Origin: Chiloscyllium plagiosum
Taxonomy: Eukaryota
Assembly: GCF_004010195.1 (NCBI RefSeq)
Contig: NC_057754.1
Coordinates: 2,326,228 to 2,390,227 of the forward strand
DNA length: 64,000 bases
Reading direction: 5' to 3'
How positions within the stretch are numbered: position 1 is the first letter of the stretch; each line of letters opens with the position of its first letter. Below, in pieces: positions 2,850 to 60,530 of this stretch. The position numbers and the translations under genes are program-made. The notes beneath the pieces were generated by a model. It had not been told where the DNA came from. It made no database searches and saw only the letters and a list, made by a program, of their open reading frames with translations.

Positions 2850-2955
2850 TGATTCTTGAAGAAGAGTCATATCGGACTGGAAACATTAACTTTGTTTCTC
2901 TCACCACCGATGCTACCAGACCTGCTGAGCTGCCCTAGCACTTTCTGTATATTTT
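2850..2955 (+). mobile_element. Degenerate PLE terminal-repeat fragment with decayed hammerhead
   Basis: ttgaagaagagtcatatcggactggaaacattaac...gatgctaccagacctgctgag; same family as 31861-31985. Confidence 0.6.
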
Positions 2956-3064
2956 TCAAATGTCTGACTTGCTGGTCTACATGATTATGTTTATCCATTT
3001 TGGGTTACCAAAGGGGGTTTTAAGTTTAGAAATATTACTTTTCTCAAACCTACCTCCAAAACAG

Positions 3065-3595
3065 TTATAGAGTCATAGAGTCATACAGCACAGAAACAGA
3101 GTCTTCAGTCCAACCAGTCCATGCCAAACTAGTCTGCTCCTGACCCATATCCCTCCAAGTATTTCTTATTCATGTACTTATCCCAATATCTTTTAAACAT
3201 GGTAACTGTACCACATCCACCACTCCCTCTGGAAGTTCATTCCATACACGAACCATTCTCTGTTTAACACAAATTGCCCTGATTTCTTTTTAAAATCCTT
3301 CTCCTCTCACCTTAAAAATGTGTCCCCTGTCTTGAAATCCCCCACCCTAGGGAAAAAACACTTACCATTCACCTTATCTATACCCCTCATAATTTTATAA
3401 AGCTCTAATGAAAAATGTCCCAGCCAATCCAGCCTCTCCTTGTAACTCAAGTCCTCCATCCCTGGCATTGTAAATGGTAAATCTCTACTGAACCCTCTCC
3501 AGTTTAATAATAATCTTCCTATAACAAAACCTCGACACAGTACTCCAGAAGAGGCCTCACCAACATCTGCACAACTTCAGCGTAACGTCCCAACT
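3065..3595 (-). mobile_element. CR1/HER1-type LINE 3' fragment
   Basis: Begins with the tagagtcatagagtc tail repeat; reverse complement of the CR1 3' region seen at 39400-39970. Confidence 0.85.
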
Positions 3596-4440
3596 TAAGT
3601 TAACTTGTATTTCACTTTGTAAAAACTCTCAAGACATTTCACATTAACATTAAAAGACCAAACCATATGAAGTGTTAGTGGGACAGGTAGTTAACAAGAC
3701 ACCCTGTTACTGGAGCGAATCCAAGTGACTTTGTTGTCTTCCATGGGATCTCTCGTGACTGAAGAGTCTGATGCAGGATCAGCATGAATATCCACCGAGC
3801 TGGCAGTTCATGTTGTCATTGTCGGTTCTTGGGGAGCAGTTCAAAAGCTTAGTGAAAGGAATAGGCTTTCAGGAGAAAGAAAGTACTTGAGTTAAACAAT
3901 CCAATGTAATCAGATGGCTGCAATGAAAATGAATTTATTGATGCTCCATGTGATAACAAGAGTTTACATATTTATGAGACGTTTAATAAAATTACAGCAA
4001 AAATGCTAATTGCTTTTACAGCTTTGAGTGAATAGCTACACTTAAGCATGATGAATGTTGAAACAGCTTTTTAAGTGAAGTAGTTGCCTGTGAGTGCAGA
4101 GAAATAATGAATCTCCAGGAGTGCTTGGTTGGTAGTAATCTAAATAACGGGTGTGAGTGATTAGAAACAGTAATGGTTACCCATCAGTGAGTTACTGCAA
4201 ACTAATTTTTTTTTATTATTCATTCATTCTCGCAATGAAGGCATCACTGGCTAGGCAGCATTTATTGCCCATCCCGAATTGCCCAGAAGGCAGTTGAGTC
4301 AAGCATGTTGCTATTGGTCTCGAGTCACATGCAGGTCAGAAAAGGTGAGGTTACCATATTTTCTTCCCTAAAGGTCAGTAGTGAACCAGGTGTGTTTTAG
4401 TTATGGTTACAAAATTGTCATCAGGTAAGTATTTTCACTT

Positions 4441-4795
4441 GGGAGTAATTTGCAGACTGGAATCTCATATAGGGGCTCAGGATAGTTTATGCATGTGATA
4501 ACAGTTACCTAGGTATGAGTGACAGATTAGAATACATTTGAGGGAGGCAAATTTATAGAGAAGATAACAGATACCGAGGAGCAATTTGCAGGCTAGCATC
4601 TCTTACACATGACTTATGTGTATGATAACAGGTACCCAGGTCTGAATTACAAACTGGAACCTAACTGAGGGGTTCAGGGCGGTTTATATATAGAATAACA
4701 GATTCCTGAGAGCAAGTTACAGACTGGAATCTAATCGAGTTACTCAGGATGTTTATACATAGGATAACAGATATCTGAGCGTGAGTGAACATAAT
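4441..4795. repeat. Degenerate ~69-70 bp tandem repeat
   Basis: About 5 units of (gagttacagactggaatctaatcgaggggttcagggcggtttatatatagaataacagatacc). Confidence 0.75.
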
Positions 4796-5609
4796 CGAGA
4801 TTAATGATTGTGCAATCCTAAATTGAGATCATTTTCTTTCAGTACTTGCGGTGTTTTCCAATTTGATACTTTGTCAGTGACACTGCTATTTGTTCATTTC
4901 TCCTTTTATTTTTGTCATTGCTGACACTGATAACCTGAACTCATCTTGTGGTTGATGAGTAGTGATACAGACAGTAGCAGGAGTGCAGCAATTACTGCAA
5001 AGTTCATTTAGCCCATTTTTGCAATGTTCCTCATGCAAGAGATCATTTTGAGATACGCACTGGTGCAGTGTGCGAGTGAATGCGATGGGAATGGGAGTTA
5101 GGAGAATGGAGACAAAAGCACTTTTGATGAGGTATATTTTTTCCAGGGGACGATGAAGAGGAATGAAAAGTGATGAGTTGCTGGTGGTGGCCTGGATTGA
5201 AAAAACCATAAGACGGGAGATAGCATGTTGAAGGACATTGGGATATTTGATTGGTGTGGATGTCGAGGATAGGCCAGAGTGATGACTAGTGCCATGACAT
5301 CAATATGATGTGGGCCATAGGAGCTGGTGGAGCTCGCCAAACTGAGGAATCGTGAGGTTGTGTATGAAAGGATTCAAGCTGCAGGTTTTAGATTAGCTGA
5401 CAACCGTTAAACTGATAAAATGTACAGCATGTATCTCAGGCTCAGCTAGCTCTTATTGTGAGAATTTGGCAACTCACTGGTTTCAGCAATATCAAGGATA
5501 TCTCCTTGGGTAGATCCTACCTCTGTCACCAAAGAGTTATAGTTACGTGGTGAAACAGCAAATAGGTTACATACTCTACGTTGCGATGAAATCTGCATTC
5601 ACAGTGCTG

Positions 5610-7417: not shown

Positions 7418-8380
7418 TAGGTACAAAAGCTTAAGCACACATACCAACAGGTTCAAGAACAGTTTCTCCCTGCTGTTATTAGATTTGTGAATGGACCTCT
7501 CAAATTTCAAATCTTACGCTGATCTTGCTTTCTGTGCATCTTCTTTGCAGCCATAATTTTGTATTCCTCATTCTGTTCAATCACCTGCGCCCACACCTCC
7601 CCCCCACCCCCACTAACTCCATTCAAGGCCCCAAAGGATCCTTCCACATCCGGCAGAGATTTTCCTGCACATCCAAACACCTCATCTACAGTGTCGTTTT
7701 CTCAATATGGTCTCATCTACACTGGGGAGACAGGACGCCAACACCGTGGAACATTTCAGAGAACATGCCTGGACAACAGTCACGGAACGACCCCACTGCC
7801 CTGTGGCCAACCACTTCAACTCCCCCTCCTGCTCCGCCAAGGATGTGCAAGTCCTGCACCACCTCCACCACCAAATCCTAGCCACCGACACCTGGAGGAA
7901 GAATGCCTCATCTTCCATCTTGGGGCTGTCCAACCATACAGCATCAACATGGATTTCACCAGTTTCCTCATCTCCCCGCCCTCCACCTTATTCCAGATCC
8001 AACCCTCCAACTCGGCACTGCCCCTTTGGACTGTCCTACCTGTCCATCATCCTTCCCACCTATACGCTCAACCCTCCACTCCAACCTATCCCCCACTTTC
8101 ATCTACCTATCGCCTTCCCAGCTACCTTGCCCACCCCCTCATTCCTGATGAAGTGCTTATGCCCAAAACATTGATTCTCCTGCTCCTTGGATGCTGCTTG
8201 ACCTGCTGTGCTTTTTCAGCGCCACACTGTTTGACTCTGATCCCCAGCATCTGCAATTCTCACTTTCTCCTATCACCCTAATGCACTTTGCATGGTATGA
8301 TCGGTCTGTACTGCACGCAAAACAAAACTTATCACTGTACCTGTGTACATGTGACAGTATAAATCAAATCGAATCAAATC
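7418..8380 (+). mobile_element. Rex1-type 3' end interrupted by a PLE insertion (7586-8271)
   Basis: 7418-7585 and 8272-8380 are collinear with 1295-1550; ATCACC is duplicated at 7580-7585 and 8272-8277. Confidence 0.7.
7586..8271 (+). mobile_element. Penelope-like element 3' fragment (GIY-YIG endonuclease remnant plus terminal repeat)
   Basis: IQGPKGSFHIRQRFSCTSKHLIY...YGLIYTGETGRQ...HFREH...PVANHFNSP, then a decayed hammerhead (cctgatgaagtgcttatgcccaaaacattg, ~8144-8173) and the shared terminal sequence. Confidence 0.85.
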
Positions 8381-16251: not shown

Positions 16252-17405
16252 TCATGATTTGGAGGAGCCGGTGTTGGACTGGGGTGAACAAAACTAAACA
16301 TCACAATACACCAGGTTACAGTCCAACAGGTTTATTTGGAAGCACTAGCTTTTGGAGCATAAGTGGTTGAAACTTTATTGCTGGAACAGCACAGCAGGTC
16401 AGGCAGCATCCAGGGAACAGGAGAAGGGCCTGTGCCCAAAACGTCGAATCTCCTGTTCCCTGGATGCTGCCTGACCTGCTGTGCTGTTCCAGCAATAAAG
16501 TTTCAACTTTGATCTCCAGCATCTGCAGACCTCACTTTCTCCTCGAGCATAAGTGGTTGCAGAGTATAAGATCATAAAACACAGAATTTATAGCAAAACG
16601 GTTACAGTGTCATGGAACTGTAATAATAGATTAAACAAATCCAGATTAAGTCTTTCATTTTTTAGAATGGGATATGCTAATTCCAGTTCTCTAATATGTA
16701 AATCCCAAAACTCCTTTTAAGTTACATTCTCAAAATAGTTTTAGCTTTTCTAAAAATAGGTGCCATCTCAGCTCAGACAATGCCTTTAAGGTGTACTTGA
16801 CCAAGCTCTCTCTCGCTCTCACTCTCTTTCGCTCTTTCTTTCTCTCTCTCTCTCTCTCTCTCACACACAGTCTTTCTCTCTCTCTCACACACATGTACTC
16901 ACGCCCCACATGCACACACTCACTCTATCTCTCCTGCGTGCGTACACATATAAGTTTATGGGGTGAATTTATATTTGCAGAATTACATTTTATTTTGCTG
17001 AAAAAAGCTGCATAAATCCAAGTAAGATTCTGTAAGTCCCACTTTAGAAATAGCACCAGCCTGACTCAACATTGGGTCACAGACAGACTTTAACGTCACA
17101 CCTTAAAGGCATTGTCTGAGCTGAGATGGCACCTATTGTTAGAAAAGCTAAGGCTATTTTGAGAATTTAACTTAAAAGGAGTTCTGGGACTTACATATTA
17201 AAGAACTGGAACTAGCATATCCCGTTCTAAAAAATGAAAGACTTAATCTGAATTGGTTTAATATATGATTACAGCTCGATGCTATAAATTCTGTGTTTTA
17301 TGATTTTATACTCCACAACCACAGATGAAGGAGCAGCACTTAGAAAGCTAGTGCTTCCAAATAAACCTGTTGGACTGTAACCTGGTATTGTGTGATTTTA
17401 AACTT
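16252..17405. mobile_element. PLE-derived asymmetric fold-back element
   Basis: Arms ~16252-16794 and ~17098-17405 are inverted. TSD-like cttcaagtaaaag (16239-16251) / cttcaaataacag (17403-17415). Contains a nested insertion. Confidence 0.85.
16370..16544. mobile_element. Nested small PLE fold-back (same family as 58405-58939)
   Basis: Arms ~16366-16424 and ~16449-16507; perfect 15-bp TSD gagcataagtggttg at 16355-16369 and 16545-16559. Confidence 0.9.
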
Positions 17406-17500: not shown

Positions 17501-17530
17501 CTGATGAAGGGCTCCGGCCCGAAACGTCGA
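17501..17530 (+). ncRNA. Minimal type I hammerhead ribozyme motif
   Basis: CUGAUGA A GGGC-UCCG-GCCC GAAAC GUC; predicted cleavage after 17528. The 5' strand of stem I is lost by truncation. Confidence 0.75.
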
Positions 17531-17627
17531 TTTTCCTGCTCCTCAGATGCTGCCTGACCTGCTGTGCTTTTCCAGCACCACACACTCTCGACTTTGATCT
17601 CCAGCATCTGCAGTCCTCACTGTCTCT
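17501..17627 (+). mobile_element. PLE terminal-repeat insertion starting at the hammerhead
   Basis: TSD tcatccactg at 17494-17503 and 17628-17637. Confidence 0.85.
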
Positions 17628-18884
17628 TCATCCACTGCTACTACTGAGCGATGATGTCTCTGTATTCCCTTATGTAATGTCAACAGTTTCGCTCTCTGCA
17701 GAAGCTTTAGTTTCCATCTCAGTTCCAAGTTTTAGCCTGCGCTGACATATTTTGCCCATCTATACTAGAACTATCTTTACTTACATGACCTGTATCCCTC
17801 TATTACCTTCCAATTCATGTATTCATCCAGGTGTTTCTTGTATTGTTTCTGCTTCCACCATTCCAGCTCATTCCTGACACCATCTTTTTATGTGAAAAAC
17901 TTGCTTCACAAATCTCTTTTAAACCCCCTCTGCCCACCCATGGACCTGTGTCCCCCTTGTAATCAATCCCTCCATCTTATTCACAATCTTATAAACTTCT
18001 ATCAGTTATGTTTTTCCTTTCTCTCTTCATTCGTTTTCAGTTGCCCATTTCAGTTTCTGCTTTAAGTTAGGATCTGCCTCAAAATCTCCATCTCTGAAGC
18101 TACGCATTCCATCATCGGATCAGTAGTTGAGTAAGGGGAGGGGAGTGTAAGTTGCAGCGCTGAGTGAGAGGAAGATTGATTCTTGCCAGAAAGGGTATCT
18201 TTCAGTGAACAGATTTTAAAGTACTGAGCATTAACACCTGATTACAGGTCTCATTGGTGAGCATTGAGTGCAAATGAAGATATGTTTGGCACTTCCGATG
18301 TCGCCAAGGGAGTGGCTTCTTTTAGCATTTCATCAAATAATTCTGAGTTCCAAAGTTGCTGCTTTTCTAATGTGAGCTTCTCTCAAAGGTAGTTCAGCAG
18401 ATTCATGTGGCTTTGTCAAAATGCTTTGAATAAGAGAATACACATTTAGGTTTATTCTGTAACTTTCTCTTTTGAGCTTCTTGTGACTTTAATCCTCTGA
18501 GTTACAATGGTCTAACCATGTCCCATAATGGCTCTGAAAAGAAAGGCTGCATAGGATCAGTTACTGATTCGAGGCCTGCAGCTTTGTAATGGGTTGGTAA
18601 TGGGTTCATTTCAGTCGGCTGCAACATCTGAATGCTTATCAACCTCGCAACGAGGGTGACTTTTAAGGACCCTTGGAATCTCATTGTTTTTGTGTACCTT
18701 CAGGGTCTTGTGCATTCATGCCAAAGTGGCTGGAATCACGAGCAAAAGCTCTCCCAAATCCCAAGTAAAAATGTATTGTGGCTTTTCAGATGGAATGGGA
18801 AGGGAGTTTTAAGGAAAACCAATTTGTGTAGATGTCAAGTCTGTTGCCTTGTGGCTTTGCCAGGACTCAGGGACTGATGATCCA

Positions 18885-19640: not shown

Positions 19641-21121
19641 CAAAATATTTCCAATGATTAACTAAAAAGGTATGAACAATAGTCCCCTATTCACCTAATG
19701 ATCTACCTGTTTACTTCTGGACTCCTCGCTATATCTGATGGGTATGAGCTAGAATCTACAAAGAAAATACTTTCAAAACAGACAACTAATCTGACATCTC
19801 TCCAAAAAGAGATTTCTGGTAAAAGCAAATATCAAAGTACATGGCTGTAACTTGCAGGCAGCTCGGTTCTGATTTGCAATGTGAAGTTTACTAACCTAAG
19901 ACAACTACCCTTTTAATTTATTATCTTGAAAATATATTGTCCTCCATGTATAATTTTTTTAAATTTCCCCTTTTCGATGCAGAATAAAGTTAGTTCACAT
20001 GGAGAGTCCCAGAAACTTCCTTGTGTGCAAGAAAACACCACTTAAACCCCCCATCTGATCACAATGGAAAATTAACCCCAACTACCAGGCTGAGACTAAT
20101 TCTCTCAGCAATTACATGCATTCAGTCCCATGCATGAATGCAAGGGATGATTTTCAACTGTTGACTCAAATTCACTAAGAGACATTTTTACAGTATAAGT
20201 AGATGTTTCAAATATCGAACCATTCAAGGCTATTTTCTAAAACCAGTGAGCATAAACTAATCATGAAAACATCCATTATTCCTTGCGAGTAAATACAGTT
20301 ACTGAACTTTCCTCACGAAAGTGCAGCGCATTACCCAATGTGCAATAAAGTGAAAGTAATTAAAATCACAACAGTCCCAGACTATTGGACTTCTCTCTCA
20401 TTAGAGAGACAACTGGTGGTGGTTTAATCTGAGGGTCAGATTAAGGAGTGCGTTCGAAAAAGAGGGATGTTCATTTTAACCTCAGCCAGAATGGGAACTG
20501 AACATGCATTGTTGGCATCACGTTGCATCAAAGATCCATGCAACTGAGCTAATGTTGATTACCAAAGTACTGCTCTGTCCCAACTTGGGAAAACAGCGTC
20601 TTGTAAAAGGACACAAGAAGTTCCAAAGAAAAGCCCAAGTGATCATTTATAATCCATTTCACCTTATGTTTATGTCACAACACGTAGCAACAGAAAGGAA
20701 ACAATTAATTCAAATAGCAGCTTAAGTGCAAGTGGCATTTTCTGAACTCTTACCAAAGCTTGGCTAACATTTCCACCAGTGGCTAGGGATTTGAAGTGGC
20801 TACTGTTGTAAACCAATTGAACTTCAGCAATGTCCACGATCTCCAGCTCTTCTTGACTATGACGGTCCACCACATGGAGCTTCTCTGCACTGTCCAGTAG
20901 AGCCAATGTACGAGAATTAATCCACTGTGTGCAGAGAAAGGGGAAAGTTAACAATACATTCTCCCCTGATTGTTCATGCAAAATGTGAATTCCACCCAAA
21001 TGATGGAACAAAGACAAAACATTATTTTGTATGATTCGGAGATGTCGGTGTTGGACTGGGGTGTACAAAGTTAAAAATCACACAACACCAGGTTATAGTC
21101 CAACAGGTTTAATTGGAAGCA

Positions 21122-21156
21122 CACTAGCTTTCGGAGCGACGCTCCTTCATCAGGTG
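21122..21156 (-). ncRNA. Minimal type I hammerhead ribozyme motif
   Basis: Minus strand: CAC CUGAUGA A GGAGC-GUC-GCUCC GAAA GCUA GUG (stem I CAC/GUG; palindromic AGCU helix III). Confidence 0.8.
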
Positions 21157-21665
21157 ATTGTGGAGGGCTCGATCGTAACACAGAATTTATAGCAAAAATT
21201 TGCAGTATGATGTAACTGAAATTATACATTGAAGAATTGATTGTCTGTTAAGCCTTTCATCTGTTAGAATAAGTGATAGTTTCACTTCTTTCATGTGTAA
21301 ATCACAAAACCCTTTTTTTTAAAGTTGCATTCTCGGGTTAGCTGTTAACAATGGTGATAGCTAGACAATGTGTTGAAGGTGTTAGCCCCCTGTGTTCTCT
21401 GTCTATAACCTGATGTTTAGATTGATTCCAATCTAAAAAGTGAGATAACAGAGTTTTACATAAATTCATACAGTTTTTGAGTAACTTTAATGCAACTTTT
21501 AAAAAAAGGGTTTTGTGATTTACACATGAAAGAAATGAAACTATCACTGTATTCTAACAGATGAAAGGCTTAACAGACAATCAATTCTTCAATGTATAAT
21601 TTCAGTTACATCACACTGCAAATTTTTGCTATAAATTCTGTGGTTATGATCGAGCCCTCCACAAT

Positions 21666-21700
21666 CACCTGATGAAGGAGCGTCGCTCCGAAAGCTAGTG
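21666..21700 (+). ncRNA. Minimal type I hammerhead ribozyme motif
   Basis: CAC CUGAUGA A GGAGC-GUC-GCUCC GAAA GCUA GUG; predicted cleavage after 21697 (CUA). Confidence 0.8.
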
Positions 21701-23031
21701 TGCTTCCAATTAAACCTGTTGGACTATAACCTGGTGTTGTGTGATTTTTAACTTTGTACACCCCAGTCGAACACCGGCATCTCTGAATCATTTCTATGTA
21801 TAGTCAGCACTGCCAGATGCATGTATGATCATTCAATCTAACTGCCAGAAGGATGATAAGCCCCTGTTTGGTGTGGGTTCTTTTATGACCTCCCCATGAT
21901 GCAGACCTGCACTTTCAGGATAACTGTCCACTTATGTGGTCTCAGACTCAGATAGCCATGTTTAAAAAATGCAAAAACAGGGTGTAGTAGACCCCACAAC
22001 ACGGGTGACATACTGGGAGCCTAAATAGATTAATGCAGTGAAATCGTGCTATTAACTAGCTGTTTCGAGACTTTGCTAAAATGTTTTTAAAAAGTAACTT
22101 TTGAACATCATGTATTTTCCAAGAAGCAGGAGAGTTAAATGAAGATGGTAATTTAGCAATCTAAATCCTCACACACTCCTGAAATCGTTGATGTTAGTGG
22201 GAACATCATACAGGTCAGTAAATGTATTTCCTGGCTGGAACAGGGGGGATTTCATGGGCCACATTTGACATTTGGCCTGAATGCTAACAAGACAAAATGC
22301 AAAGGCAAGTAATGTTCTGAAAGTAGTTTTTATGCTGCTGGAACATTGCATTATAAATATAGTAACAAATAAATGAGATAGCTGGAAGTAGGGGAGATGT
22401 CAGCGAGCTGAGTTATAGAAGATTGTCTTGTTTAATCCGCAACTGTTTTGATTGCTTGGGAATGAAAGAGACTTCTAAGTATCTCAGAAGCAGAAATGAT
22501 CAAGGAGAACTGGGTTAATTTACGGACAGGATTAAGTGTTGTATCACAGAAACAGGCAAAATGCTTTATAATTAAATGCACAAAGCCACATCTTCTGTAC
22601 GAGTATCTCACTGACTTGGTTTAATGTAGCACAAAGCTAGATAGAGCCGATTTGATCCCCAATCCACACTAAATTAATTGGTCTTGAATAGGCCGATGTG
22701 CGCCAGCACTTCTAGCTGAAAATAGAGAAATACATTCTGCATTCCTACTCCTGACCACTTTGCAGGAACTCCTCGAAACTTACTGAAGATGTGAAGTTGT
22801 CAGATAAAGTCGAAATGTTGACAAATGAGTGGTTGCTTGGCAGTGGAAAACTGATAAACAGTCTTTCACTGTGTACACTGGACACATGAGTAATGATTAC
22901 TTGGTTGTGAGATAAGAACCGATGATGAAGCCTGGGTAAAAATGTTCTCCTGATAACGAGTTTTGAGAAGATTTGTAGCTCAGGTTGAGGTTCTGGATGT
23001 AGGTTTGCATGCTGAGCTGGAAGGTTTGTTT

Positions 23032-23071
23032 TCAAATGTTTCGTCACCATACTAGGTAACATCATCAGTGA
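23032..23071 (-). ncRNA. Hammerhead ribozyme motif (slightly decayed)
   Basis: Minus strand: UCA CUGAUGA U GUUACC-UAGUAU-GGUGAC GAAAC AUU UGA. Confidence 0.65.
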
Positions 23072-26850: not shown

Positions 26851-27010
26851 AAATGAAGGTCTTTTGCCCGAAATGTCGATTTTCTGATGAAGGGCTTTTG
26901 CCCGAAACGTTAATTTTCCTGCTCCTCGGATGCTGCCTGACCTGCTGTGCTTTTCCAGCACCACTCTAATCTTGACTCTAGCCTCCAGCATCTGCAGTAC
27001 CCAATTCTGC
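26851..27010 (+). mobile_element. PLE terminal repeat with tandem duplicated hammerhead, inserted in CR1
   Basis: TSD cta(c/t)aggaaggatatt at 26835-26850 and 27011-27026. Partial motif at 26853-26880, then CUGAUGA A GGGC-UUUU-GCCC GAAAC GUU at 26884-26911. Confidence 0.85.
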
Positions 27011-38934: not shown

Positions 38935-39966
38935 TATGATACAGAACTGGTTCGAAGGTAGAACACAGAGGGTGGTGGTGATGGAGGGGTGTTTTTCAGA
39001 CTGGAGGCCTGTGACCATTGGAGTGCCACAAGGATCGGTACTGGGTCCACTACTTTTCGTCATTTATATAAATGATTTGGATGTGAGCATAAGAAGTATG
39101 GTTAGTAAGTTTGCAGATAACACCAAAATTGGACAGCGAAGAAGATTACTTCAGATTACAATGGGATCTTGATCAGATGGGCCAATGGGCTGAGGAGTGG
39201 CAGATGGAGTTTAATTCAGATAAATGCGAGGTGCTCCATTTTGGGAAAGCAAATCTTAGCAGGACTTATACACTTAATGGTAAGGTCTTAAGGAGTGTTG
39301 CTGAGCAAAACGACCTTGGAGTGCAGGTTCATAGCTCCTTGAAAGTAGAGTCACAGGTAGGTAGGTAGTGAAGAAGGCATTTGGTATGCTTTCCTTTATT
39401 GGTCAGAGCATTGAATACAGGAGTTGGGAGGTTATGTTGCAGCTGTAGAGGATATTGGTGAGACCACGTTTGGAATAGTGCATGCTATTCTGGTCTCCTT
39501 CCTATCCGAAGGATGTTGTGAAACTTGAAAGGGTTCAGAAAAGATTTACAAGGATGTTGCCAGGGTTGGAGGATTTGAGCTATAGGGAGAGGCTGAACAG
39601 GCTGGGGCTGTTTTCCCTGGAGCATTGGAGGTTGAGGGGTGATCTTATAGGTGTTAATAAAATCATGAGGGGTATGGATAGGATAAATAGACAAGGTCAT
39701 TTCCCTGTGGTGTGGGAGTCCAGAATGAGAGGGCATAGGTTTAGGGTGAGAGGGGAAAGGTATAAAGAGACTTAAGGGGCAATGTTTTACACAGAGGGTG
39801 ATATGTGTATGGAATGAGCTGCCAGAGGAAGTGGTGGAGGCTGGTACGATTGCAACATTTAAAAGGCATCCGGATGGGTATATGAATAGGAAGGGTTTGG
39901 AGGGATATGGGCCAGGTGCTGGCAAGTGGGACTGGATTAGGTTAGGAAATCTGTTTGGCATGGACT

Positions 39967-41993: not shown

Positions 41994-42112
41994 ATGTCAT
42001 CCACACAGTGGGACCCATCGTACAGGGGAAGGAGAGGCTGCCAGAGAAAGCCCTCCAGAGTTGTTACATAAAAAGCCTGAAACTAGCAGAGGACAACAAC
42101 CTGCGAACCATT
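41994..42112 (+). CDS. MACROD1: Internal coding exon of a MacroD-type ADP-ribose glycohydrolase (MACROD1 favoured, MACROD2 not excluded)
   Basis: Polypyrimidine tract and TAG acceptor (41991-41993), GTAAGT donor at 42113. The 119-nt exon (phase 1 in, phase 0 out) encodes [Y]VIHTVGPIVQGKERLPEKALQSCYIKSLKLAEDNNLRTI, matching the VIHTVGP...L..CY...L......LRS/TV exon of MACROD1/2. Paralogue choice is from recalled resemblance only. Confidence 0.88.
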
Positions 42113-44992: not shown

Positions 44993-45752
44993 AGTCATAG
45001 AGATGTACAGCACGGAAACAGACCCTTAGGTCCAACTCGTCCATGCCGACCAGATATCCTAAATAAATCTAGTCCCATTTGCCAGCCCATATCCCTCCAA
45101 ACCCTTTCTATTCATATACCCATCCAAATGCCTTTTAAATGTTGTAATTGTACCAGCCTCCACCACTTCCTCTGACAACTCATTCCATACACGCACCGCC
45201 CTCTGTGTGAAAAAGTTGCCCCTTAGGTTCTTTTTAAATCATTACCCTCTCACCCTAAACCTATGCCGTCTAGTTTTGGACTCTTCCACCCTGGGGAAAA
45301 TACCTTGTCTAATTACTGTATCCTTGCCCCACATGATTTTATAAACCTCTATAAGGTCCACCCTCAGCCTCCTACTTTCCAGGGAAAACAGCCCCAGTCT
45401 ATTCAGCCTCTCCCTATAGCTCAAACCCTCCAACCCTGCCAACACCCTTGTAAATCTTCTTTGAACCCTTTCTAGTTTCACAGCATGTTTCCTGTAATAG
45501 GGAGACCAGAAGTGAACACAGTATTCCAAAATTGGCCTCAACAACATCCTGTCAAGCCGCAAACTGACCTCCCAACTGCTATACTCAATGTACTGTACAA
45601 AGGCAAGCAAATCAAACACCTTCTTCACTACCCTGTCTACCTTGAACTCCACTTTCAAGGAACTATGAACCTGCACTCCAAGGTCTTTTTGTTCAGCAAC
45701 ACTCCCCAGGACCTTACCACTACATGTGAAAGTCCTGCCCTTATTTGCCTGA
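44993..45752 (-). mobile_element. CR1/HER1-type LINE 3' fragment
   Basis: ORF 45242-45760: GKVLGSVAEQKDLGVQVHSSLKV...RPILEYCVHFWSP...ERVQRRFTR. Confidence 0.93.
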
Positions 45753-47371
45753 TCTTCCATTTAGTCCTCAGTCTTTCAGCTCAGCTTCATCCTGTGCAAG
45801 AGGGCAGAAGTAGAATGCAAATGACTTTTGATCAGTGCCTGGAAAAGCCTTTTGGAGATTTATAAGGATTTTATCGTAAAACTATAGTTTAGCCCAAACA
45901 CCAGTTTCCAGCTTTCCCTTTTGCTCAGTGGAGAACCCAGACCGCACTGGGGAAGAATACATTGTCCAATGCACATCACCTATACTCCGTTAACTCTGAA
46001 ACCATTCTGGTAACCCTTCAACAGCGCCTGTACTGCTAATACTGACACTGACAAGGAAACAGAGAACGCCCAAGGCACAATGAACCTTACCACAGCGAGG
46101 ATTGAACACATTTTAGGCAGCAAGTGATAAGATACAAGAGATCCACTGAAAATTAAAAAGAGAAGCATAGGTTGGCATATAATCAATATGGAACCAGTGC
46201 AATCCTATTCACCAGAATTACCTCAGGGATGTGGTGCAGACACAGAGATTATACAACAATACGCAGCAGCCTGGTATTAAACTGATCCTCTGCTTGCATT
46301 GTTCTATCTAATAATGTGCCTAGCAGCATGTGATACAGATTGGCTGCAGAATGCCCTAAACAATGAGTCTTTTGGCTCCTGTCTCTGAGGCTGAACTGAT
46401 TGAGAACCAGATGGGGGCTGCAGTGCTTTGATATTGTTTCTTTTCCCTGTTGTCTTTGTTTCTTTCAATTAGTCTTCTTCGACAAATAGTATAAGATTTC
46501 TACTCTTCACAACGACCATTCTGAGTGAAATCATTAATTACTGATCAATTATATAAAAGCTTATCTTGGACTGGTTGCTGTTAATGTCAGTAACTATCCT
46601 AAATGCTATTTGACCAGTGATCATTTTGGCCTCTTTTCCCAAGATAGCTGACCCCGGTAGTGTCCAGTCTGTTGGGGAATGCCTGCAGATTCATGTGTCC
46701 TGCCTCTGACTCTCTTTAAACTGCTGCTTGGCCTACTCTGCATTTGCAGTGGGTCCTGTTTCAGTGGCGCTTCTCCCGCAGTCTCAGTATTCCTTCTTAC
46801 CTCTTGAGCGAATACACAGCAGGGCAGAATCTGGATAACAGATGCATTCATTCAGTACCGTCATTACCATCTTTAATTTACATCGTCAGAGCCATAATGT
46901 AACTGAGTGCCATTTAGCGTATGAGTTGGTGGGACAGATTAGAATTTAAACATCACAGCCATCAGTGGATTTTGGTGCAGAACTATTTAGGAGGAAAAAA
47001 CCCTGAATCGTATCTATTAATTGTGTTGAATAATGGCTAAATATTGCTCAGGATATGAGGAAACTGCTGATTTTCTTGATTGCAGTAGAGGCCTGGGGCT
47101 TGAGATGAGGCAGCTAAATCTAACCATAAATTACACAGTAGTGCACTGAGGAAAAAAGGAATTGTGACCGATCAAAGTTGGTTCTGCAGATTATTGGTAT
47201 CGGTGACATTCATTGGCCACAGTACAAGCTCCACCTGACTAGTATCGAGTCCAGGTAGGTGATCTGATCTGCCCTCACAGTCTGCTGTAACTACAGTGAT
47301 GGGCTATTTATCAGCAACAGGATTTGTACCTGACAAGGCAAAATTCTGTTAGCTCCAGTAAAATAAGAACT

Positions 47372-48000
47372 AGATAGAATCATACAGCACAGAAACAGAC
47401 TCTTCATCCAACTACTCCATGCCGAACATAAACCCAAATTAAACTAGTCCCACAGAAGCGCTTCACAGGAGGCTCCCAAGCACTGAGGATGTCACCTAGA
47501 CAGGGGACAAAACGTCTGCAACACAAATTCCCAGCTCAGCAAGCAGAACCACAACAACTAGTCCCACCTTCCAGCTCCTGACCCAGATCCCTCCAAACCT
47601 TTCCTCTTCATGTATTTATGAAAATGTCTTTTAAATGTTGTAATTGTACCCACATCTACCACTTCCTCAGGAAGTTCATTCCACATGCGAACCACCCTCT
47701 GTGTAAAAGCATTGCCCCTCATGTCTTCTTTTAATTCTCTCTCCTCTCATCTTAAAAATGTGCCCCCTAGTCTTGAAATCCTTCATCCTAGGGAAAAGAC
47801 ATCTGCCACTAACACTGCCTATACCTCTCATTATTTTATAAACTTCTATTACATCGCCTCTCAACCTCCTACGCTCCAGTAAAAACGGTCCCAACCTATC
47901 CAGCCTTTCTTTATAACTCAGACCTTCCATACCTCTCAACATCCTGGTAACTCTCTTCTAAGCCCTCTCCAGCTTAATAATATCCTTCCTATAGCTGGGC
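47372..48000 (-). mobile_element. CR1 LINE 3' fragment
   Basis: MLRGMEGLSYKERLDRLG.F.LERRRLRGDVIEVYKIMRG; interrupted by a PLE insert. Confidence 0.88.
47454..47555 (+). mobile_element. PLE terminal-repeat insertion with hammerhead motif (47480-47519)
   Basis: TSD aactagtcccac at 47442-47453 and 47556-47567. GCA CUGAGGA UGUC...GAC aAAAC GUC UGC carries a G-to-A change in the GAAA core. Confidence 0.8.
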
Positions 48001-48624: not shown

Positions 48625-49520
48625 GTCAGTATAGTGAACAGTGAAGAAGGTTACCTCACAGTGCAACAGGATCTTGATCAGATGGATTAATGGGCCAAGG
48701 AGTAGCAGATGGGAGTTTAATTTAGATACATGCGAGGTGCTGCACTTTGGAAAGGCAAATCAGGGCAGGACTTATACACTTAATGGTAAGGTCCTGGGGA
48801 GTGTTGCTGAACAAAGAGACCTTGGAGGGCAGGGTCATAGCTCCTTGGAAGTGGAATCACAGGTAGATAGAATAGTAAAGAAGGTGTTTGGTATGCTTTC
48901 CTTTATTGGTCAGTGCATTAAGTATAGGAGTTGGTAGGTCATGTTGTGGCTGTACAGGACATTGGTTAGGTCACTTTTGGAATACTGCATACAGTTCTGG
49001 TCTCCATGCTATGGGAAGGATGTTGTGAAACCTAAAAGGGTTCAGAAAAGATTTACAAGGATGTTTCCATAATTAGAGAGCTCCAGCTAGAGGGAGGGGC
49101 TGAATGGACCCGGTCTATTTTCCCTGAAGTGTCAGAGGCTGAGAGGTTATAGAGGTTTATAAAATCATGGGGGTGCATGGGTAGAATAAATAGACAAGTA
49201 TTTTCCTCTGGTGGGGGAGTCCAAAGCTAGAGGGCATAGGTTTAAAATGAGAAGGGGAAGAATTAAAAGGGACCTAAGGGACAACTTTTTCACGCAGAGG
49301 GTGATGCGTATATGGAATGAGCTGCCAGAGGAAGTGGTGGAGACTGGTGCAATTACATCATTTAAAAGGCATCTGGATGGGTATTTGAACAGGAAGGATA
49401 TAGAGGGATATGGGCCAATTTGCTGGCAAATGGGACTAGATTAATTTAGGACATCTGGTCAGCATGGGCGAGTTGGACTGAAGGGTATGTTTCTGTGCTG
49501 CATATCTTTATGTCTCTACA
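48625..49520 (+). mobile_element. CR1/HER1-type LINE 3' fragment
   Basis: WEFNLDTCEVLHFGKANQGRTYTLNGKVL...WNELPEEVVE. Confidence 0.92.
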
Positions 49521-49663: not shown

Positions 49664-49698
49664 CACTAGCTTTCGGAGCACTGCTCCTTCATCAGGTG
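49664..49698 (-). ncRNA. Minimal hammerhead ribozyme motif
   Basis: Minus strand: CAC CUGAUGA A GGAGC-AGU-GCUCC GAAA GCUA GUG. Confidence 0.78.
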
Positions 49699-49819
49699 GT
49701 TGTGTGATGTTTAACTTTGTATAGGTAAAAACAATGACTGCAGATGCTGGAATCCAGATTCTGGATCAGTGGTGCTGGAAGAGCACAGCAATTCAGGCAG
49801 CATCCGACGAGCAGCAAAA

Positions 49820-49851
49820 TCGACGTTTCGGGCAAAAGCCTTTCATCAGGA
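49820..49851 (-). ncRNA. Minimal hammerhead ribozyme motif
   Basis: Minus strand: UC CUGAUGA A aGGC-UUUU-GCCC GAAAC GUC GA. Confidence 0.7.
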
Positions 49852-52022
49852 ATAAAGGTGGAGTTAACTTTGTTTACCCTAGTCCAACACCGGCATCTCC
49901 ATATCGTAATCAGATGAGATATTGAATGGCTCGAGGGGCTGGGACCTATTACATCCATATGTTTATATGTTCAGCTGAAGGGGCAGCCAGGGCCTCAGTT
50001 TAGTATTTCATGCACAAGATGGCACTCCCTCTCTGGTGCAGGAGCAGTTGTCCAGCAGCCATGAACAGTTGATTTCAGAGAAGGAGGCAGGCAGTCACTC
50101 TTGGCTGGTGAGTTTGTTCTACTGCAAGCTCAGGAAAAATAGATTAGATATATTCAGTGATAAATGGCAGTGTGTGATTGGCCCATCATGCTTACACTTT
50201 TTACAGTGTTTTGTCAAGAAAGGAAATTCCATTTGTCCTGTTGTGTAAGCTGATTATAATCGCTGGGGGGGTGTGTAAAGAGGTGAGTACATTGCCTTTG
50301 GCATCAGTGTTCACAGTGCATCGCAGACAATCTCCCCATCCAGGCCTGAGGTAGACACTTAGCAGAAGTATTCGCACTGCATTGCTTTCCTTAGATTAAC
50401 ATTGTGATAACCAATGTGTGATGGAAGCTAACTGCAGGATGAGTTCCAACAAAACCTGCTGTCTTGTTAGAATCACTTTGTCTGGGGAAATATTTTTGAC
50501 AGACAAGGGGAAAAGCCGCAATTGATTCTGATGGTATTGTTTTCACCCCCACCCCGCAACACTGCATGTAAACATAGTGCCTTGGGGGTTTTCCACTGAA
50601 GGGCGTGTGAATATTTTCACCAAGCACTGACTAATAGGGCACTTAGGGAAGCAGTTCATTATTGATGAGGCACACTAGCAGCTGAGGATTTCTTATTTTC
50701 AATTTATTCTTTCTCTTCAGTTTGTTTTCTTCACTGGTCAATAAGCGATTTTGGATTTAACCCATTCCACATTTCTCACAAGCCCATCTGTCATCTCTGT
50801 GCTGTGAGACTGTTTGCTGAACTTCCCTTTTAGATTGATTGAAATCTTCCAGCTGAATCTCACTAAGTTCAAAAGCATCGACCTACAAAGTTGGCTCACA
50901 ATTTCAGGCTGTAATTGAATTCCACTAGGCTCCATATGAAGATCATGGAGAAACACATGCAAACTCATCTTTACAAGTTCATTCTGAGGATGTGAACGTC
51001 ATTGACAAGGTCAGTCCTTGTTTCCTATCCTAAATTGCCCCTGAGAAGGGGATGCAGTCTATGTGGTGTAGGAATACCAAAAGCTCAATCAAAACTCTGT
51101 TGCCTGTATCTAATCTGACATCACGTCCCATTGACCCATCACTCCCATGCTTGTTATATCAGCTACCTGTCCCAATTTCAAATCCTCATCCCTATGTTTA
51201 TATTGCTCCATAACCATCCCTCACTCTGTAACCTTACAGCCTGACCCCATACTATACCCTTCCTTCCTTTCATACACCTCTTCTGAATCTCTGTCTGTTT
51301 TAGTCATATTACTTGGACTTGTGTCATCAGCCACACCAGGACCCACTAACAAAATGTTCCATCTAAACCCCTCCACTGCCTCTTTAACCAAATCGCAAAC
51401 CGCTCCTAATCTGAATCCTAACATGACTTAATGGTTGCCTAGTTGAGAGGGTGCAATTCTATATTTAGTCTTAGGAAATAAGGTTGAACAGGTCGATGAA
51501 GTAGCAATGAGTGGCCATTTTGGAAATAGTGATCATAATATAGTTAAATTCAGCATCATTATGGAATGGGACAAAGCACGGCAGTAAAAGTTCAAAACTG
51601 GGGAAACTTCATGAAGTTGAGAAATGATCTGGAAAAAAGACTGGTTATAGCTACGTAAAGGAAAGTCGGTGATAAATTAGTGGAAGGTATTCATAAGTGA
51701 GAATCTCCAAGCAGAGTAGGCATGTTCCACAAAAGGAAAAGATCATGTTGCATCTAGAGTTCGCAGGTTATCTGCAAGTGTACAGGATCAGATAAAACAG
51801 AAAAGTAGAGTTGAGACAGTCTCAAACAAAAGGAATGCTTTAGGAAGCTTAGAGGAGGAGAGGAAGTACATGGATGGCATGGAAAGGAAACTAGGATAAC
51901 AAAGAGAGGTTATGAAAAATTATTGTACAATAATACAGTAAAATTAAGGAAAATCCAAAGTTGTTTTCCAATACACTAAGAGCAAGAGGATGAGTCAGGA
52001 AAGGGTTGCCCCTCTCAGAGAT

Positions 52023-52191
52023 ATGATGTGGAGATGCCGGTGGTGGACTGGGGTGGACAAAGTTAAAAATCACACAACACCAGGTTACAGTCCAACAGGT
52101 TTATTTGGAAGCACTAGCTTTCAGAGCGCTGCTCCTACATCAGGTAGGCATGACGGACTAAACCTGATGTTGTGTGATTTTTAACTTTGTC
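52023..52191. mobile_element. PLE asymmetric fold-back (tagtccaacagg family)
   Basis: Full left arm with a decayed minus-strand hammerhead (~52112-52145); right arm ends at ttaactttgtc without the tail. Confidence 0.8.
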
Positions 52192-52440
52192 GACTGGAGT
52201 AGGGAAAGGGGATGGTGGTCAGTGAATGTAACAAGTAAAGTTTTCTCTGTCACCATGTCAGCTCTGCACTCCCTCCACTCCAGTGGGACTGTCTGTTCTT
52301 TCCAATCTGGCAATTAGACACACCATTCTGCCATTCTCACATTCCGATCACTTAATGTGCACTATCAACACCTTTTCTCCCCAGCACTCCACCCCTATAC
52401 TATTGCATAAATACTGCCTCCTCCACACTTCAGGTCAATG

Positions 52441-52474
52441 CTGATGAAGAGTCATCTGGACTCGAAATGTTAGC
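52441..52474 (+). ncRNA. Hammerhead motif in PLE terminal repeat (~52240-52530)
   Basis: CUGAUGA A GAGUC-AUCUG-GACUC GAAA uGUU AGC. Confidence 0.65.
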
Positions 52475-53689
52475 TTGCTCTCCATAGACGCTGTCTGACC
52501 CGCTGTGATCTCCAGCACTTTTTGTCTTGAATTGTACCATAGCTTGTTAAAGGAAACTGTGAAGAGATAATGGATGCTCTGAGGACCATTTCCAATTCTT
52601 GCTGGACATAGACAATGTACAAGAGGGTTGGAGGACTGCAAGTGTTGTGCCATTATTTAAAAAAGGTGTGAGGAACAGGCAAGATAACTATAGACTGCTC
52701 AGTCTGTCTTCAGTGGGAGACAAATTACTGGAATGAATGTAGGTGAAAGCGAGCTTTGAGAAGATTTGTAGCTCAGGTGAGAGGTTGGAATAACTAACTT
52801 GGAGAAGCGAGGATTAATCAGGGGTAGTCACAGTGGGTTTGTGAAGCAATATTGTGTTGTACAAACCTAATAGATTTTTTTGAGGGTAGTGACGATTGAT
52901 GAGGGTTGCCTACATGGAAAAATGCACATTTATCATTTTGGTGGGAAGAATAGATGTACAGAGAATTTCTTAAATGGTAAGAGGTTTGAAAGTATAGATG
53001 TGCAAAGAGTGACCTTCAGTAAGCCACTGAAGGCTGCTGTGCTGATGCAGCAAGCTTTTAGGAAGGCTAATGGAATGATGTCTGTTATTGCAAGAGGATT
53101 TGAGTACAGGACCAGTGAAGCCTTGCTTCAGTTGTAGAGGAGTTTGGTTGGAACACACCTTGTCTCAGGAAAGATATTACTGGCATAAAGGAAGGGCAAC
53201 AGATGTTCACCAGACTTGTTCCTGTCAGGGCAATGTTGCCCTTTAAAGAGAGATGAGAGAAACTGGGCCGACATCAAAGGCCTGTATGAAAGACTTTTTG
53301 GGAACATCAAACGATAAAGAGGTAATTTCATTGAAAGCTACAAAATGCATAAAAGAATAGACAGAGTGGATGCAGGTAATATATTTCCCCTGGTTGGAGA
53401 GCCTGGAAACAGAGAAACAATTTGAAAAGGGGGATGCCATTTAGTACTGAGGTAGGAAGAAATTTGTTGACTCTGAGGTTGTACACCTTTGGTATTCTCT
53501 ACTCTCGAGGGTTGTGGAAGCTCAGTGTTAAACTATATTTAAAGCAAAGGTTGATGTATTTTGGATTACCAGATTTGTAAAGGGTTATGGGGGTAATGTA
53601 AAAGCCATGATCATGTTAAGTGGCAGAGCAGACTCGACTTTCTGAACAGTCCACTCCAAAATTTAATTGGCTACTGGCCTATGCGTATT

Positions 53690-56589: not shown

Positions 56590-57100
56590 GACTGCACCTC
56601 GAATATTGTGTGCAATTTTGGTCCCCTTACTTTAGGAAGGATGTTATTGCCACAGAGGGAGAGGAAAAAAGTGTTCCCTGGACTATCTATGAAGAGAGAT
56701 TAGAGAAATTGAGCCAGTATTCTCTAGAGCTTTGAAGAATGACGTGATTTCGTTGAGAACCCATGAAATACTTAAAGGGATAGACAGAGGAGATGTGCTG
56801 GAAATCACAGTAGGTCAGGCAGCATCCATGGAGAACGTGCACACTAATGTTTCGAGTCTAGGTGACTCTGATGAAGAGACATCTCGACTCCAAACATTAG
56901 CCTGTTCTCTCTGCACAGATGCTGTCTGACCCGCTGTGATTTCCAGCAATTTTTGTTTAGAATTCTCTCCACTCAGTCATTGGATATGTTTCAAATAGAG
57001 ATTGATAGATTTCTGAATGCCAATGACGAAAAGGATTTTGGAATGGTGTGGGAAAAAGACATTGAAGTGGATGGTCAGCCATGATAGTATGGAATGGCAG
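56590..57100 (+). mobile_element. CR1 3' fragment containing a PLE fold-back (~56795-56958); the CR1 resumes at 59052-59120
   Basis: cacctcgaatattgtgtgcaattttggtcccc; inverted gtgctggaaatcacag.../ctgtgatttccagca with a decayed hammerhead at ~56868-56900. Confidence 0.75.
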
Positions 57101-57166
57101 GAGGCTGGAAGAAGACAGCAAGCCAGGCAGCATCAGGAGATGGAGAAGTTGACGTTTTAAGCTAGA

Positions 57167-57304
57167 CCAAAAGTGAGGACTGCAGATGCTGGAGATCAAG
57201 ATTAGAGTGTTGCTGGAAAAGCACAGCAGGTCAGGCAGCATCCGAGGAGCAGAATAATCGACGTTTAGGGCAGGAGCACTTCATCAGGAATGAGGCCTAC
57301 AACC
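57167..57304 (-). mobile_element. Nested PLE terminal repeat with decayed hammerhead (57260-57287)
   Basis: TSD-like tttaagctaga (57156-57166) / ttcgagctaga (57305-57315). Confidence 0.75.
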
Positions 57305-57344
57305 TTCGAGCTAGAGGTCAGGGTGAGTAGTACAAGCTGCTAAC

Positions 57345-58225: not shown

Positions 58226-58495
58226 ATATGGATAATAATGGAGCAGGGTAGGATGAATAGGCTTCGGATTGGTTCCACAGGTCAGCACAACATCAAGGGC
58301 CGAAGGGCCTGTACTGCGCTGTAATAGAGTCATAGAGCTATAGAGATGTCTGTGTTCTCTCAGTGTAACCCTTCTTCAGGACTGAGGAAGGGTTACACCC
58401 GAAAAGAAAGTGAGGTCTGCAGATGCTGGAGATCAAAGTTGAAACTTTATTGCTGGAACAGCACAGCAGGTCAGGCAGCATCCAGGGAACAGGAG

Positions 58496-58531
58496 ATTCG
58501 ACGTTTCGGGCACAGGCCCTTCTTCAGGAAT
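58496..58531 (-). ncRNA. Minimal type I hammerhead ribozyme motif
   Basis: Minus strand: AUUC CUGAAGA A GGGC-CUGU-GCCC GAAAC GUC GAAU. Confidence 0.82.
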
Positions 58532-58845
58532 GAGCAGAGAGTGTTCAGCAGGAGAAAATAAAAGGTAGGGAGGAGGGACTTGGAGGAGGGGCGTTGGAAA
58601 TGTGATAGGTGGAAAGAGGTCAAGATGAGGGTGATAGGTCGGAGTAGGATGGAGGCGGAGAGGTCTCTACTGGACCTCCAAAAGGACCTCTACTGTTCTT
58701 CATCCACAGAAGACCTCTCCGCCTCCATCCTACTCCGACCTATCACCCTCACCTTGACCTCTTTCCACCTATCACATTTCCAACGCCCCTCCTCCAAGTC
58801 CCTCCTCCCTACCTTTTATCTTCTCCTGCTGAACACTCTCTGCTC

Positions 58846-58881
58846 ATTCCTGAAGAAGGGCCTGTGCCCGAAACGTCGAAT
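58846..58881 (+). ncRNA. Minimal type I hammerhead ribozyme motif
   Basis: AUUC CUGAAGA A GGGC-CUGU-GCCC GAAAC GUC GAAU; stem I AUUC/GAAU; predicted cleavage after 58877. Confidence 0.82.
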
Positions 58882-59734
58882 CTCCTGTTCCCTGGATGCT
58901 GCCTGACCTGCTGTGCTGTTCCAGCAATAAAGTTTCAACTTACACCCGAAACATCGACTTCTCCACCTCCTGATGCTGCCTGGCTTGCTGTGTTCTTCCA
59001 GCCTCCTGCTTATTTACCTTAGATTCCAGCATCTGCAGTTTTTTTGTCTCTATGATAGTATGGAATGGCAGAACAGATTTGATGGACTAAATGGCCTGCT
59101 CTTGTTCCTATGTTTATGTTATAATGGATTCAAAGTCTGCTCGCTCAATCATTGGCTAGATTTGAACTGCTTGGTCTATCGTTTGTCATTTGAAACATTG
59201 GTAGTGTCAGACTACAAAATAGAAAGCATCTCTGTGATATAGACGAGATTTTCGTTTTCATTTAAACTGTATTATGGTCTTTTCTAATAACAAATATTGT
59301 CGACAGCCATAATCAAAGATTCTGGGTGTTACTATTGAATTACCATCCAAAACTGTAGTGTTTCCTTTGAGCAATGTACACCCTGTAGCTGTACTCATTC
59401 AGTTGAGGGACAGTGCTAACTGTGGTCAGCATGAGGTCTCTTTGACCTTGTTTGACCTGAAACTTTGAGAAAATCTGGGCCAATCCCTATGCATCACTGT
59501 CTCTCCCACAACTGGTGGCTCTGACCTACTGTTGGGACATACCCATGGATGTTGATGAAGGAGTCTGGGATGAGGGCTAATAAATAGATTAATTCTGGGC
59601 AAGTGTGCAGAACAGTATCAGTCATCCAATGTCAATGAGGAGGAATTTACAAAGTTGATTGAAATTCCCATAATCTTATCTTGGTGTCCTTATCAGGAAA
59701 TTATACACCAGTTAAGCCGAACATCTGGGAGAAT

Positions 59735-60530
59735 AAGGTCAGAAGTCAGACAACACCAGGTTATAGTCCAACAGGTTTAATTGAGATCACAAGCTTTTGG
59801 AGCATTGCCCCTTTGTTAGGTAGAGCGAGAGAGAAGCATACAGGCAGAGAATTTATGGGCAGAGAGATCAAAAAACCATACAAATGGTGTGAGTGGAGGG
59901 TCGAGAGGCTGAGTAATAAGTCTCTGCAGGAGATCATCAGAGTCAGACGGTGTGAGTAAAGTTGAGAGTGTGGTGCTGGAAAAGCACGGCAGGTCAGGCA
60001 GCATCCAAGGAGCAGGAAAATTGACATTTTGGACAAATGCCCTTGGTCAGGAATGAGGCTGGGAACCTTGGGAGTGGAGAGATAAATGAGAGGTGGGTGG
60101 GGCTGGGGAGAAAGTAGCTGAGAGTGCAATAGGTGGATGAAGGTGGGGGTAATGGTGATAGGCCAGAGAGGAGGGTGGAGCAGATAGGTGGGAAGGAAGA
60201 TGGACAGATAGGACAGGTTGTGAGGGCAGTGCTAAGCTAGAAGGTTGGAACTGGGATAAGGTGAAGGGAGGGGAAATGAGGAAACTGGTGAAATCCACAT
60301 TGATGCCATGGGGTTGGAGGATCCCAAGGCAGAAGATGAGGCGTTCTTCCTCATGGGTGATAAGGGAGTGGTGAGGGAGGAGGCCCTCCATTTATCTGTT
60401 CTCATAGCGTCTGCATGGTCTCGGCAATATACCATGCCTTGGGGGGTCCTTGCCTGCAGCATATGAGGTAGACAACATTGGCCAAGTTACTTGCCGTGTA
60501 TGTGATGGGTGTGTTCCCACGGCAGATACT
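59735..60530 (-). mobile_element. PLE (tagtccaacagg family) with GIY-YIG remnant, interrupted by a second PLE
   Basis: Terminal repeat at 59735-59960; minus strand at ~60390-60490 reads ANVVYLICCRQGPPKAWYIAETMQTL. Confidence 0.75.
59960..60390 (-). mobile_element. PLE 3' fragment (GIY-YIG C-terminus plus terminal repeat)
   Basis: EEERLIFCLGILQPHGINVDFTSFLISPP; homologous to 7890-8240. Confidence 0.85.

Follow-up and report, generated by a model that had tools for sequence, protein, structure and literature searches.

The 64-kb window analysed here (64,000 nucleotides of the shark Chiloscyllium plagiosum; NCBI RefSeq assembly GCF_004010195.1, contig NC_057754.1, positions 2,326,228 to 2,390,227 of the forward strand) contains numerous minimal hammerhead ribozyme motifs. 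Very probably, these are end modules of endonuclease-positive Penelope-like elements (PLEs) from three lineages, present mostly as short, decaying insertions that are likely to have arisen by target-primed reverse transcription of uncut RNA. PLEs of this kind are real, abundant and already known, and the described system is hereby extended to another vertebrate genome at high copy number. "Ribozyme" is used throughout as a label for the motif; judged by their sequence, most copies would be broken.

Intact and decayed hammerhead motifs

Our motif scan required CUGANGA with one optional extra base, a stem II of at least three pairs, GAAA-NN-UH and a stem I of at least three pairs. Seven strict motifs, in which the type I core CUGANGA/GAAA/UH is closed by stems I and II, were detected in the window, whereas 30 local dinucleotide shuffles yielded not a single one. 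Allowing one mismatch raised the number to nine (0-1 in shuffles), and with two mismatches the 11 motifs found (0-6 in shuffles) represent no gain over chance. A homology search with seeds from the window, counting matches spanning 20 or more of the 30 motif bases, revealed 29 remnants. Both core boxes are retained in 13 of them, and core, stems and helix III palindrome are intact in five (21669 and 58850 on the plus strand; 21153, 49695 and 58527 on the minus strand). The original prediction for this DNA, made from the sequence alone, of more than 20 motifs thus holds if decayed and truncated remnants are included, but not for intact motifs. The commonest type of the largest group described below, clan A, escapes the strict scan because of a U-U mismatch in its stem I. 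Damage often lies at CpG steps, namely in the ACGU palindrome and at C11.1-G12, and this location may account for much of it. No hammerhead family was among the 30 matches of an Rfam search of the window at E≤10.

An intact family A1 motif of type I with an ACGU palindrome is located at 58846-58881 on the plus strand (predicted cut after 58877). Together with its mirror copy at 58496-58531 on the minus strand, it forms a head-to-head insertion (58405-58939) with a long tail on the left, a short end on the right and a 12-bp target duplication, which interrupts a family D motif whose halves lie at 58382 and 58940. Likewise, an intact family B motif with an AGCU palindrome and a CUA triplet (21666-21700, plus strand; predicted cut after 21697) and its mirror copy (21122-21156, minus strand) form a head-to-head insertion at 21031-21791, both ends of which are long-tailed. 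Another intact family B motif lies at 49664-49698 on the minus strand. These two cut sites had been placed correctly by the original prediction, and its five cited motifs are located as claimed, with the claimed stems. Three of the five are damaged, however: the proposed ACGU or AGCU palindrome is present in five of the seven strict motifs but has decayed to CA at 23032 (minus strand) and 35619, and the motif at 47480 carries a G12 to A change.

Genome-wide, the core pattern has 165,449 matches compared to 224 for controls. Exact or near-exact copies number 12,076 for A1 (the 32-mer of the 58846 motif, exact matches), 12,186 for family B (with the 3-nt loop left free) and 5,110 for family C, with no matches for any of the controls.

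Three lineages with covarying stems

A common downstream block unites the GGGC (A), GGGT (D), GAGTC (E, H) and GGGTC (F, G) types, which align as one clan, clan A; the AGCU family (B) and the long-stem family (C) stand apart from it. Since the four types are homologous, the proposed six or more families in otherwise unrelated repeats become, on sequence grounds, three lineages with eight or more subfamilies.

In 13 clan copies aligned by sequence alone, seven of the ten named pairs change on both sides, which was reached in none of 500 shuffles, and controls in which the structure was slid along the alignment gave values of 0.04-0.15 compared to 0.435 for the true structure. Covariation between homologous subfamilies affects the stems and the C3-G8 core pair, so that the predicted cross-family covariation is borne out within this clan. 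The copies were hand-picked so that the motif could be read, and they are related, which the shuffle control does not take into account; we therefore take this result as support rather than as a probability. The 10.1-11.1 pair is GC in nine and GU in four of the 13 copies. An extra base after A9 (between 9 and 10.1) is present in 116 of 116 strict motifs from sampled genome DNA, and positions 15.2/16.2 are GC in 62 and CG in 41 of them (103/116 together); the loci of this sample were enriched for A1 and B by design.

A further subfamily carries a U3-A8 catalytic core pair (L213-L222; L166:2410-2486, minus strand). It has 2,014 genome matches compared to 427 for controls, corresponding to ~1,600 copies above control, and is absent from the window. 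The same swap is known from Schistosoma (portions covered of PMC4209133).

Coding sequences upstream of the motifs

The assignment to PLEs is supported in all three lineages by sequences coding for a GIY-YIG endonuclease (EN) or a reverse transcriptase (RT) upstream of the motif. In a family A1 copy, GIY-YIG coding precedes the motif (Pfam E 3.9e-6); RT was not seen. Two GIY-YIG remnants in the window, at 7583-7886 and 35032-35279, match the family A endonuclease (E 4e-18 and 7e-13) and sit upstream of motifs at 8145 and 35623. The first belongs to a remnant at 7583-8281 (plus strand) that continues into a decayed clan A motif and tail; the second is followed by a family D motif (35619-35653) with a decayed palindrome (35032-35653, plus strand). 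On the minus strand, an ORF-end remnant (60390-60494) is followed by a decayed clan A motif near 60050 (59944-60494). In long copies of family B, the hammerhead motif is preceded at a distance of 370-740 bases by an endonuclease-like end, and an RT motif and a CxxC linker are present as well; at locus L117, which has RT and EN motifs, the hammerhead motif lies 661 bases past the ORF-end anchor. In family B terminal repeats (L113-L142), a microsatellite rich in CA also separates the ORF end from the motif.

Family C has an upstream RT (Pfam E 3.4e-11) and EN motifs, and lacks the CxxC linker. In the window, a Poseidon-type ORF end runs into the damaged family C motif at 47480-47519 (47452-47519, plus strand), and a second family C motif (23032-23071, minus strand) has a partner at 23102 on the plus strand. 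In this family (L224-L253 and window 47452-47519), the ORF terminates at a stop codon within the motif, and a new frame, beginning with an ATG where stem II starts, extends across the tail, an arrangement also described for the Anolis Poseidon element. A CX2-5CxxC linker between RT and EN, which serves as the Neptune/Nematis criterion in the portions covered of PMC8557442, is found in family A and in family B copies L117 and L121. By this criterion, families A and B would be Neptune-type and family C Penelope/Poseidon-type.

Several observations weigh against our interpretation. For family B, Pfam gives weak support (an RT match at E 0.007, short of the curated cut-off, and none to GIY-YIG), and the assignment is based on motifs and on an endonuclease 35% identical to that of family A. 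At the three loci examined (L031, L032 and L254), no element was intact over its full length between two terminal repeats, and no genome-wide protein search was made for full-length family A. The covariation comes from 13 hand-picked copies whose relatedness the shuffle control ignores, and stem I of the commonest clan A type contains the U-U mismatch. In folding models, isolated motifs do not outperform shuffled sequences (z -0.3 to -1.7), and a modelled A1 dimer gains no stability over monomers (-13.1 versus 2 x -7.1 kcal/mol); the energy models do not discriminate between readings. Finally, family C shows no accumulation of 5′ ends at the motif, so that run-off at this site is not general.

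Copies of two lineages often end at the 5′ edge of the motif

The repeated module consists of the minimal hammerhead and ~60-95 bases stopping at one of two ends ~35 bases apart, which corresponds to the PLE tail. Most insertions are a 95-130 base module alone or as a mirror pair, and the tail of 30-40 bp, inverted repeats and target duplications (10-16 bp) typical of PLEs are all present. Mirror pairs combine one long and one short end in 19/19 A1 cases and in 21/26 family B pairings, the latter including a few cross-pairings.

For mapping 5′ ends, all exact matches to the A1 tail within the first 12.2 Mb of contig C1 were used, giving 67 copies after removal of duplicates and of four rows from a region chosen by length, with mirror arms counted separately. 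Relative to C3, 41 of the 67 ends lie at -6 to +2, two at -30 to -7 and seven further upstream; 11 lie at +3 to +25, two at +26 to +30, where the cut site is located, and four beyond. In family B, likewise sampled by its tail, 29 of 56 ends fall at -15 to +3 and one at +25 to +33, around the cut site; one copy could not be aligned, and a peak at -2 probably represents a subfamily absent from the references. The idea that insertions start at the cut site was rejected, with only the two A1 ends and the one family B end located there. In sets selected by motif, the start lies no more than 15 bases from the core in 23 of 30 A1 copies, compared to none of the 27 copies of the main family C subfamily, a set that left out two copies of another subfamily lacking a reference and one unaligned copy.

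Such an accumulation of 5′ ends is consistent with the copying of uncut RNA whose start lies at the ribozyme motif. Similarity of RNA reads (89, from many loci) to the window is lost at 58846, the first base of stem I. No pile-up of read starts or ends was observed among 1,045 reads of one raw run (a second run gave none); these stem from a poly(A) single-cell library and from many loci, and are unsuited to locating cleavage or start sites. Inspection by eye of long copies from eight clan subfamilies shows that stem I begins with an A preceded by two pyrimidines. Such a YYA-like context resembles the initiator consensus of RNA polymerase II. This likeness is only suggestive, because the region is pyrimidine-rich and the same A pairs in stem I.

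An extra G derived from a cap is absent in 11 A1 junctions with a target duplication; of seven family B junctions at -8, five follow a G (scored by eye, several being fold-backs). A 3′ splice site as in Drosophila virilis Penelope is not favoured, as A1 and B have no AG before stem I and no common upstream exon. In that element, the start at 371 and the intron end at 491 (PMC2377424) both precede C3 at 496 (PMC4209133), according to the portions of both papers covered, so that it differs from the elements described here.

A model for the short insertions

We propose that the element protein would nick the target and that copying would start inside the RNA just downstream of the motif, usually running off the RNA 5′ end at the first base of stem I in the Neptune-type families. 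Selection would keep the motif only in active masters, where it may cut as a dimer or with help from the element protein. If the RNA of Neptune-type elements starts at stem I, priming close to its 5′ end would yield short run-off copies. More specifically, the Neptune-type transcript may start at the first base of stem I in its initiator-like YYA context, and priming ~90-125 bases downstream may generate a short run-off cDNA that integrates alone or as a mirror pair. This detailed version is tentative, and we would put it below an even chance. If true, hundreds of thousands of solo minimal hammerheads would be by-products of uncut RNA, and the run-off cDNA would resemble retroviral strong-stop DNA. 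The ribozyme would then be a 5′-end device that either clips off the first 32 bases with their cap or joins two RNAs via its palindrome, and Neptune-type and Poseidon-type replication would be set apart.

Alternatively, the 5′ ends could accumulate through stalling of the RT or DNA repair at the structured motif rather than at an RNA start. The junctions are spread over ~9 bases, many of them with 2-5 bases of microhomology and many being fold-backs, and self-priming by the palindrome is discussed in the portions covered of PMC3846280. However, the RT reaches the 3′ strand of stem I first, so that a stall is expected at +28 to +32, where 2/67 ends lie. Moreover, the left edge is hard, with 2/67 ends between -30 and -7, and the equally structured family C motif lacks the pile-up. 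We therefore regard stalling or repair as somewhat unlikely.

The sharp 5′ boundary and very high copy number are also what a separate non-autonomous, SINE-like family of ~95-130 bases would show, with master loci that begin at the motif and are mobilised by PLE proteins; non-autonomous PLE derivatives have been proposed (portions covered of bioRxiv 10.64898/2026.07.22.740005). This is improbable given that short and long A1 copies are nearly identical over the module, that a continuum of longer copies extends up to the ORF, and that the same boundary occurs in two unrelated lineages. In addition, no tandem array with a hammerhead per unit, as expected of non-LTR retrozymes, is present among the 17 tandem-repeat rows of the window; what is seen instead is a local duplication of 34 bases at 26853.

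In line with our model, inserted copies appear to decay neutrally. Copies selected by their tail show no better preserved core: those of A1 differ at 4/510 core and 3/1122 flank positions, and non-CpG differences in family B copies amount to 15/360 in the core and 31/792 in the flank. At the non-CpG position of loop II, 18 of 40 family B copies differ, compared to ~4% in the stems. Thus, family B masters vary in the loop only, and structure is kept between master lineages, not after insertion.

We also asked about nesting. Stubs of PLEs lie in or against the end modules of other PLEs at 58405-58939, 16367-16545 and 49740-49889 and near 57152-57294; this is not enriched in genome samples. Targeting of PLE hammerheads by other PLEs was rejected, since one of 66 A1 and one of 55 family B 3′ flanks start in a module, compared to a background of 2.2%.

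Host gene and density of remnants

An exon at 41994-42112 (plus strand) matches MACROD2 (E 4e-5) and MACROD1 (E 3e-4). The host gene, represented in the window by this exon alone, is of the MACROD macrodomain type, its flanking exons lying outside the window. Contigs from two studies cover exactly this exon and then continue with sequence absent from the stretch compared; in the window, peptide motifs from these continuations have no exon-like match. The remainder of the window is likely intron, as had been predicted, and the inserted copies likely have no effect on the MACROD transcript.

It is very improbable that the intronic motifs are active host elements cutting MACROD pre-mRNA as dimers: they do sit in an expressed gene, with 15 of 29 on the sense strand, but strand bias is absent (15 versus 14), sampled copies lack extra core conservation, the only two fully intact sense copies are 37 kb apart with different palindromes and are modelled to fold into long, near-perfect hairpins with their own mirror arms that would sequester the motif, and the cut site shows no accumulation of read starts or ends, a weak test with the library described above.

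The high density noted by the original prediction is real, with one remnant per 2.2 kb, but is only two to three times the genome average and needs no intron-specific cause. In twenty arbitrarily chosen 10-kb stretches (185 kb after gap removal) we found 29 remnants, one per 6.4 kb, and modules cover 6.5% of the window and 2.2% of the sampled genome DNA. The core pattern occurs seven times in the window versus 2.9 expected (P=0.03, mirror pairs counted twice). Because mirror pairs are double-counted, the seeds derive from the window and the window was picked for this very trait, we do not read it as a special locus for these elements.

Comparison with known hammerhead-bearing elements

The motifs share many features with the minimal hammerheads of metazoan PLEs described in the portions covered of PMC4209133: the type I core, the extra base between 9 and 10.1, G10.1-C11.1, palindromic 15.2-16.2 positions including G-C, the occurrence of many families in one genome, a predominance of solo copies, pairs on opposite strands 100-700 bp apart and the U3-A8 core variant. 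Its Fig. S3 includes two rotifers (Adineta vaga and Philodina), Schistosoma mansoni and the turtle Chrysemys with G-C at 15.2/16.2, and Marsupenaeus with a CUA triplet. AGCU is already among these examples, so that its suggested status as a distinct helix III solution is not supported. The exact combination of AGCU and A17 is not among the 56 listed. Cartilaginous fish are absent from the same 56, and no 5′ boundary at the motif is described in those portions. The ~165,000 core-pattern matches here compare with ~4,000 in coelacanth and ~9,000 in Xenopus, obtained under different search rules.

For the Anolis Poseidon element PAc, the portions covered of PMC11167929 show that priming occurs internally at two sites and that both strands are extended; the template is mainly uncut RNA, and cleavage is aided by protein. 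Our elements resemble PAc in two adjacent internal RT start sites yielding the tail, in both-strand extension and in an uncut RNA template, as far as these can be deduced from copy ends, which fit this scheme. Family C also shares the ATG at the start of stem II. Families A and B differ from PAc by their Neptune-type CxxC linker and by copies that end at the 5′ edge of the motif, whereas family C does not.

General PLE architecture, as given in the portions covered of PMC3846280 and PMC8557442, likewise includes inverted terminal repeats, a 30-40 bp tail often at one end only, target duplications, heavy 5′ truncation and an initiator-like sequence in the terminal repeat. Unlike in those PLEs, a 95-130 base module, alone or mirror-paired, predominates here. 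Non-LTR retrozymes (portions covered of PMC7229834 and bioRxiv 10.64898/2026.07.22.740005) also carry type I hammerheads in non-coding repeats related to PLE ends, but form tandem arrays with mostly canonical motifs, whereas the copies described here are dispersed, solo or head to head.

Tens of thousands of young copies from three lineages record where copying starts and stops, and make this genome a test bed. The contrast between Neptune- and Poseidon-type 5′ ends tests whether the motif stands at the RNA start and whether cut RNA is copied. In the literature listings and papers covered, we found no account of the 5′ pile-up, and none of these motifs in a shark beyond the one chondrichthyan in which the retrozyme survey, in its portions covered, reports non-LTR retrozymes. 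The role of PLE hammerheads is still called unclear in the portions covered of PMC8557442.

Other remnants and features of the window

Clan A stubs starting at the core are located at 17501-17629, where the 5′ strand of stem I is lost, and at 26884-26975 (both plus strand), and a further clan A stub, at 49740-49889 (minus strand; motif at 49849), lies within a family B element. A head-to-head family F pair (31861, plus; 31878, minus) spans 31801-31970. The region 52036-52550 contains a decayed family B motif (52143, minus) and a family E motif (52441, plus), and 56786-57294 contains a decayed family E pair (56869, plus; 56876, minus), a family D half-motif (57177, minus) and a clan A stub (57286, minus). 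A decayed clan remnant lies at 2856-2957 (plus strand), and other decayed remnants at 8585, 16418 and 17322 on the plus strand and at 43744, 44268 and 59818 on the minus strand.

An Rfam mir-15 match at 16371-16502 (minus strand), which is below the gathering score, is probably spurious, since it overlaps with a PLE stub of the fold-back kind. An RT-bearing LINE-type element has left many fragments, at 39280-39964, 45085-45760, 48753-49473 and 62575-64000 (Pfam RVT_1 at 62575-63171). Two SINE-like copies, which we take to resemble tRNA-derived fish SINEs, are arranged head to head at 468-798, with 165-base arms and one base between them. Elsewhere in the genome, a family A1 stub adjoins a retrovirus-like pol frame at L001 (G000:C1:39821-42852), and L016 (G000:C1:2505153-2508184) holds a 298-residue open frame that presumably resembles a host glycosidase exon.

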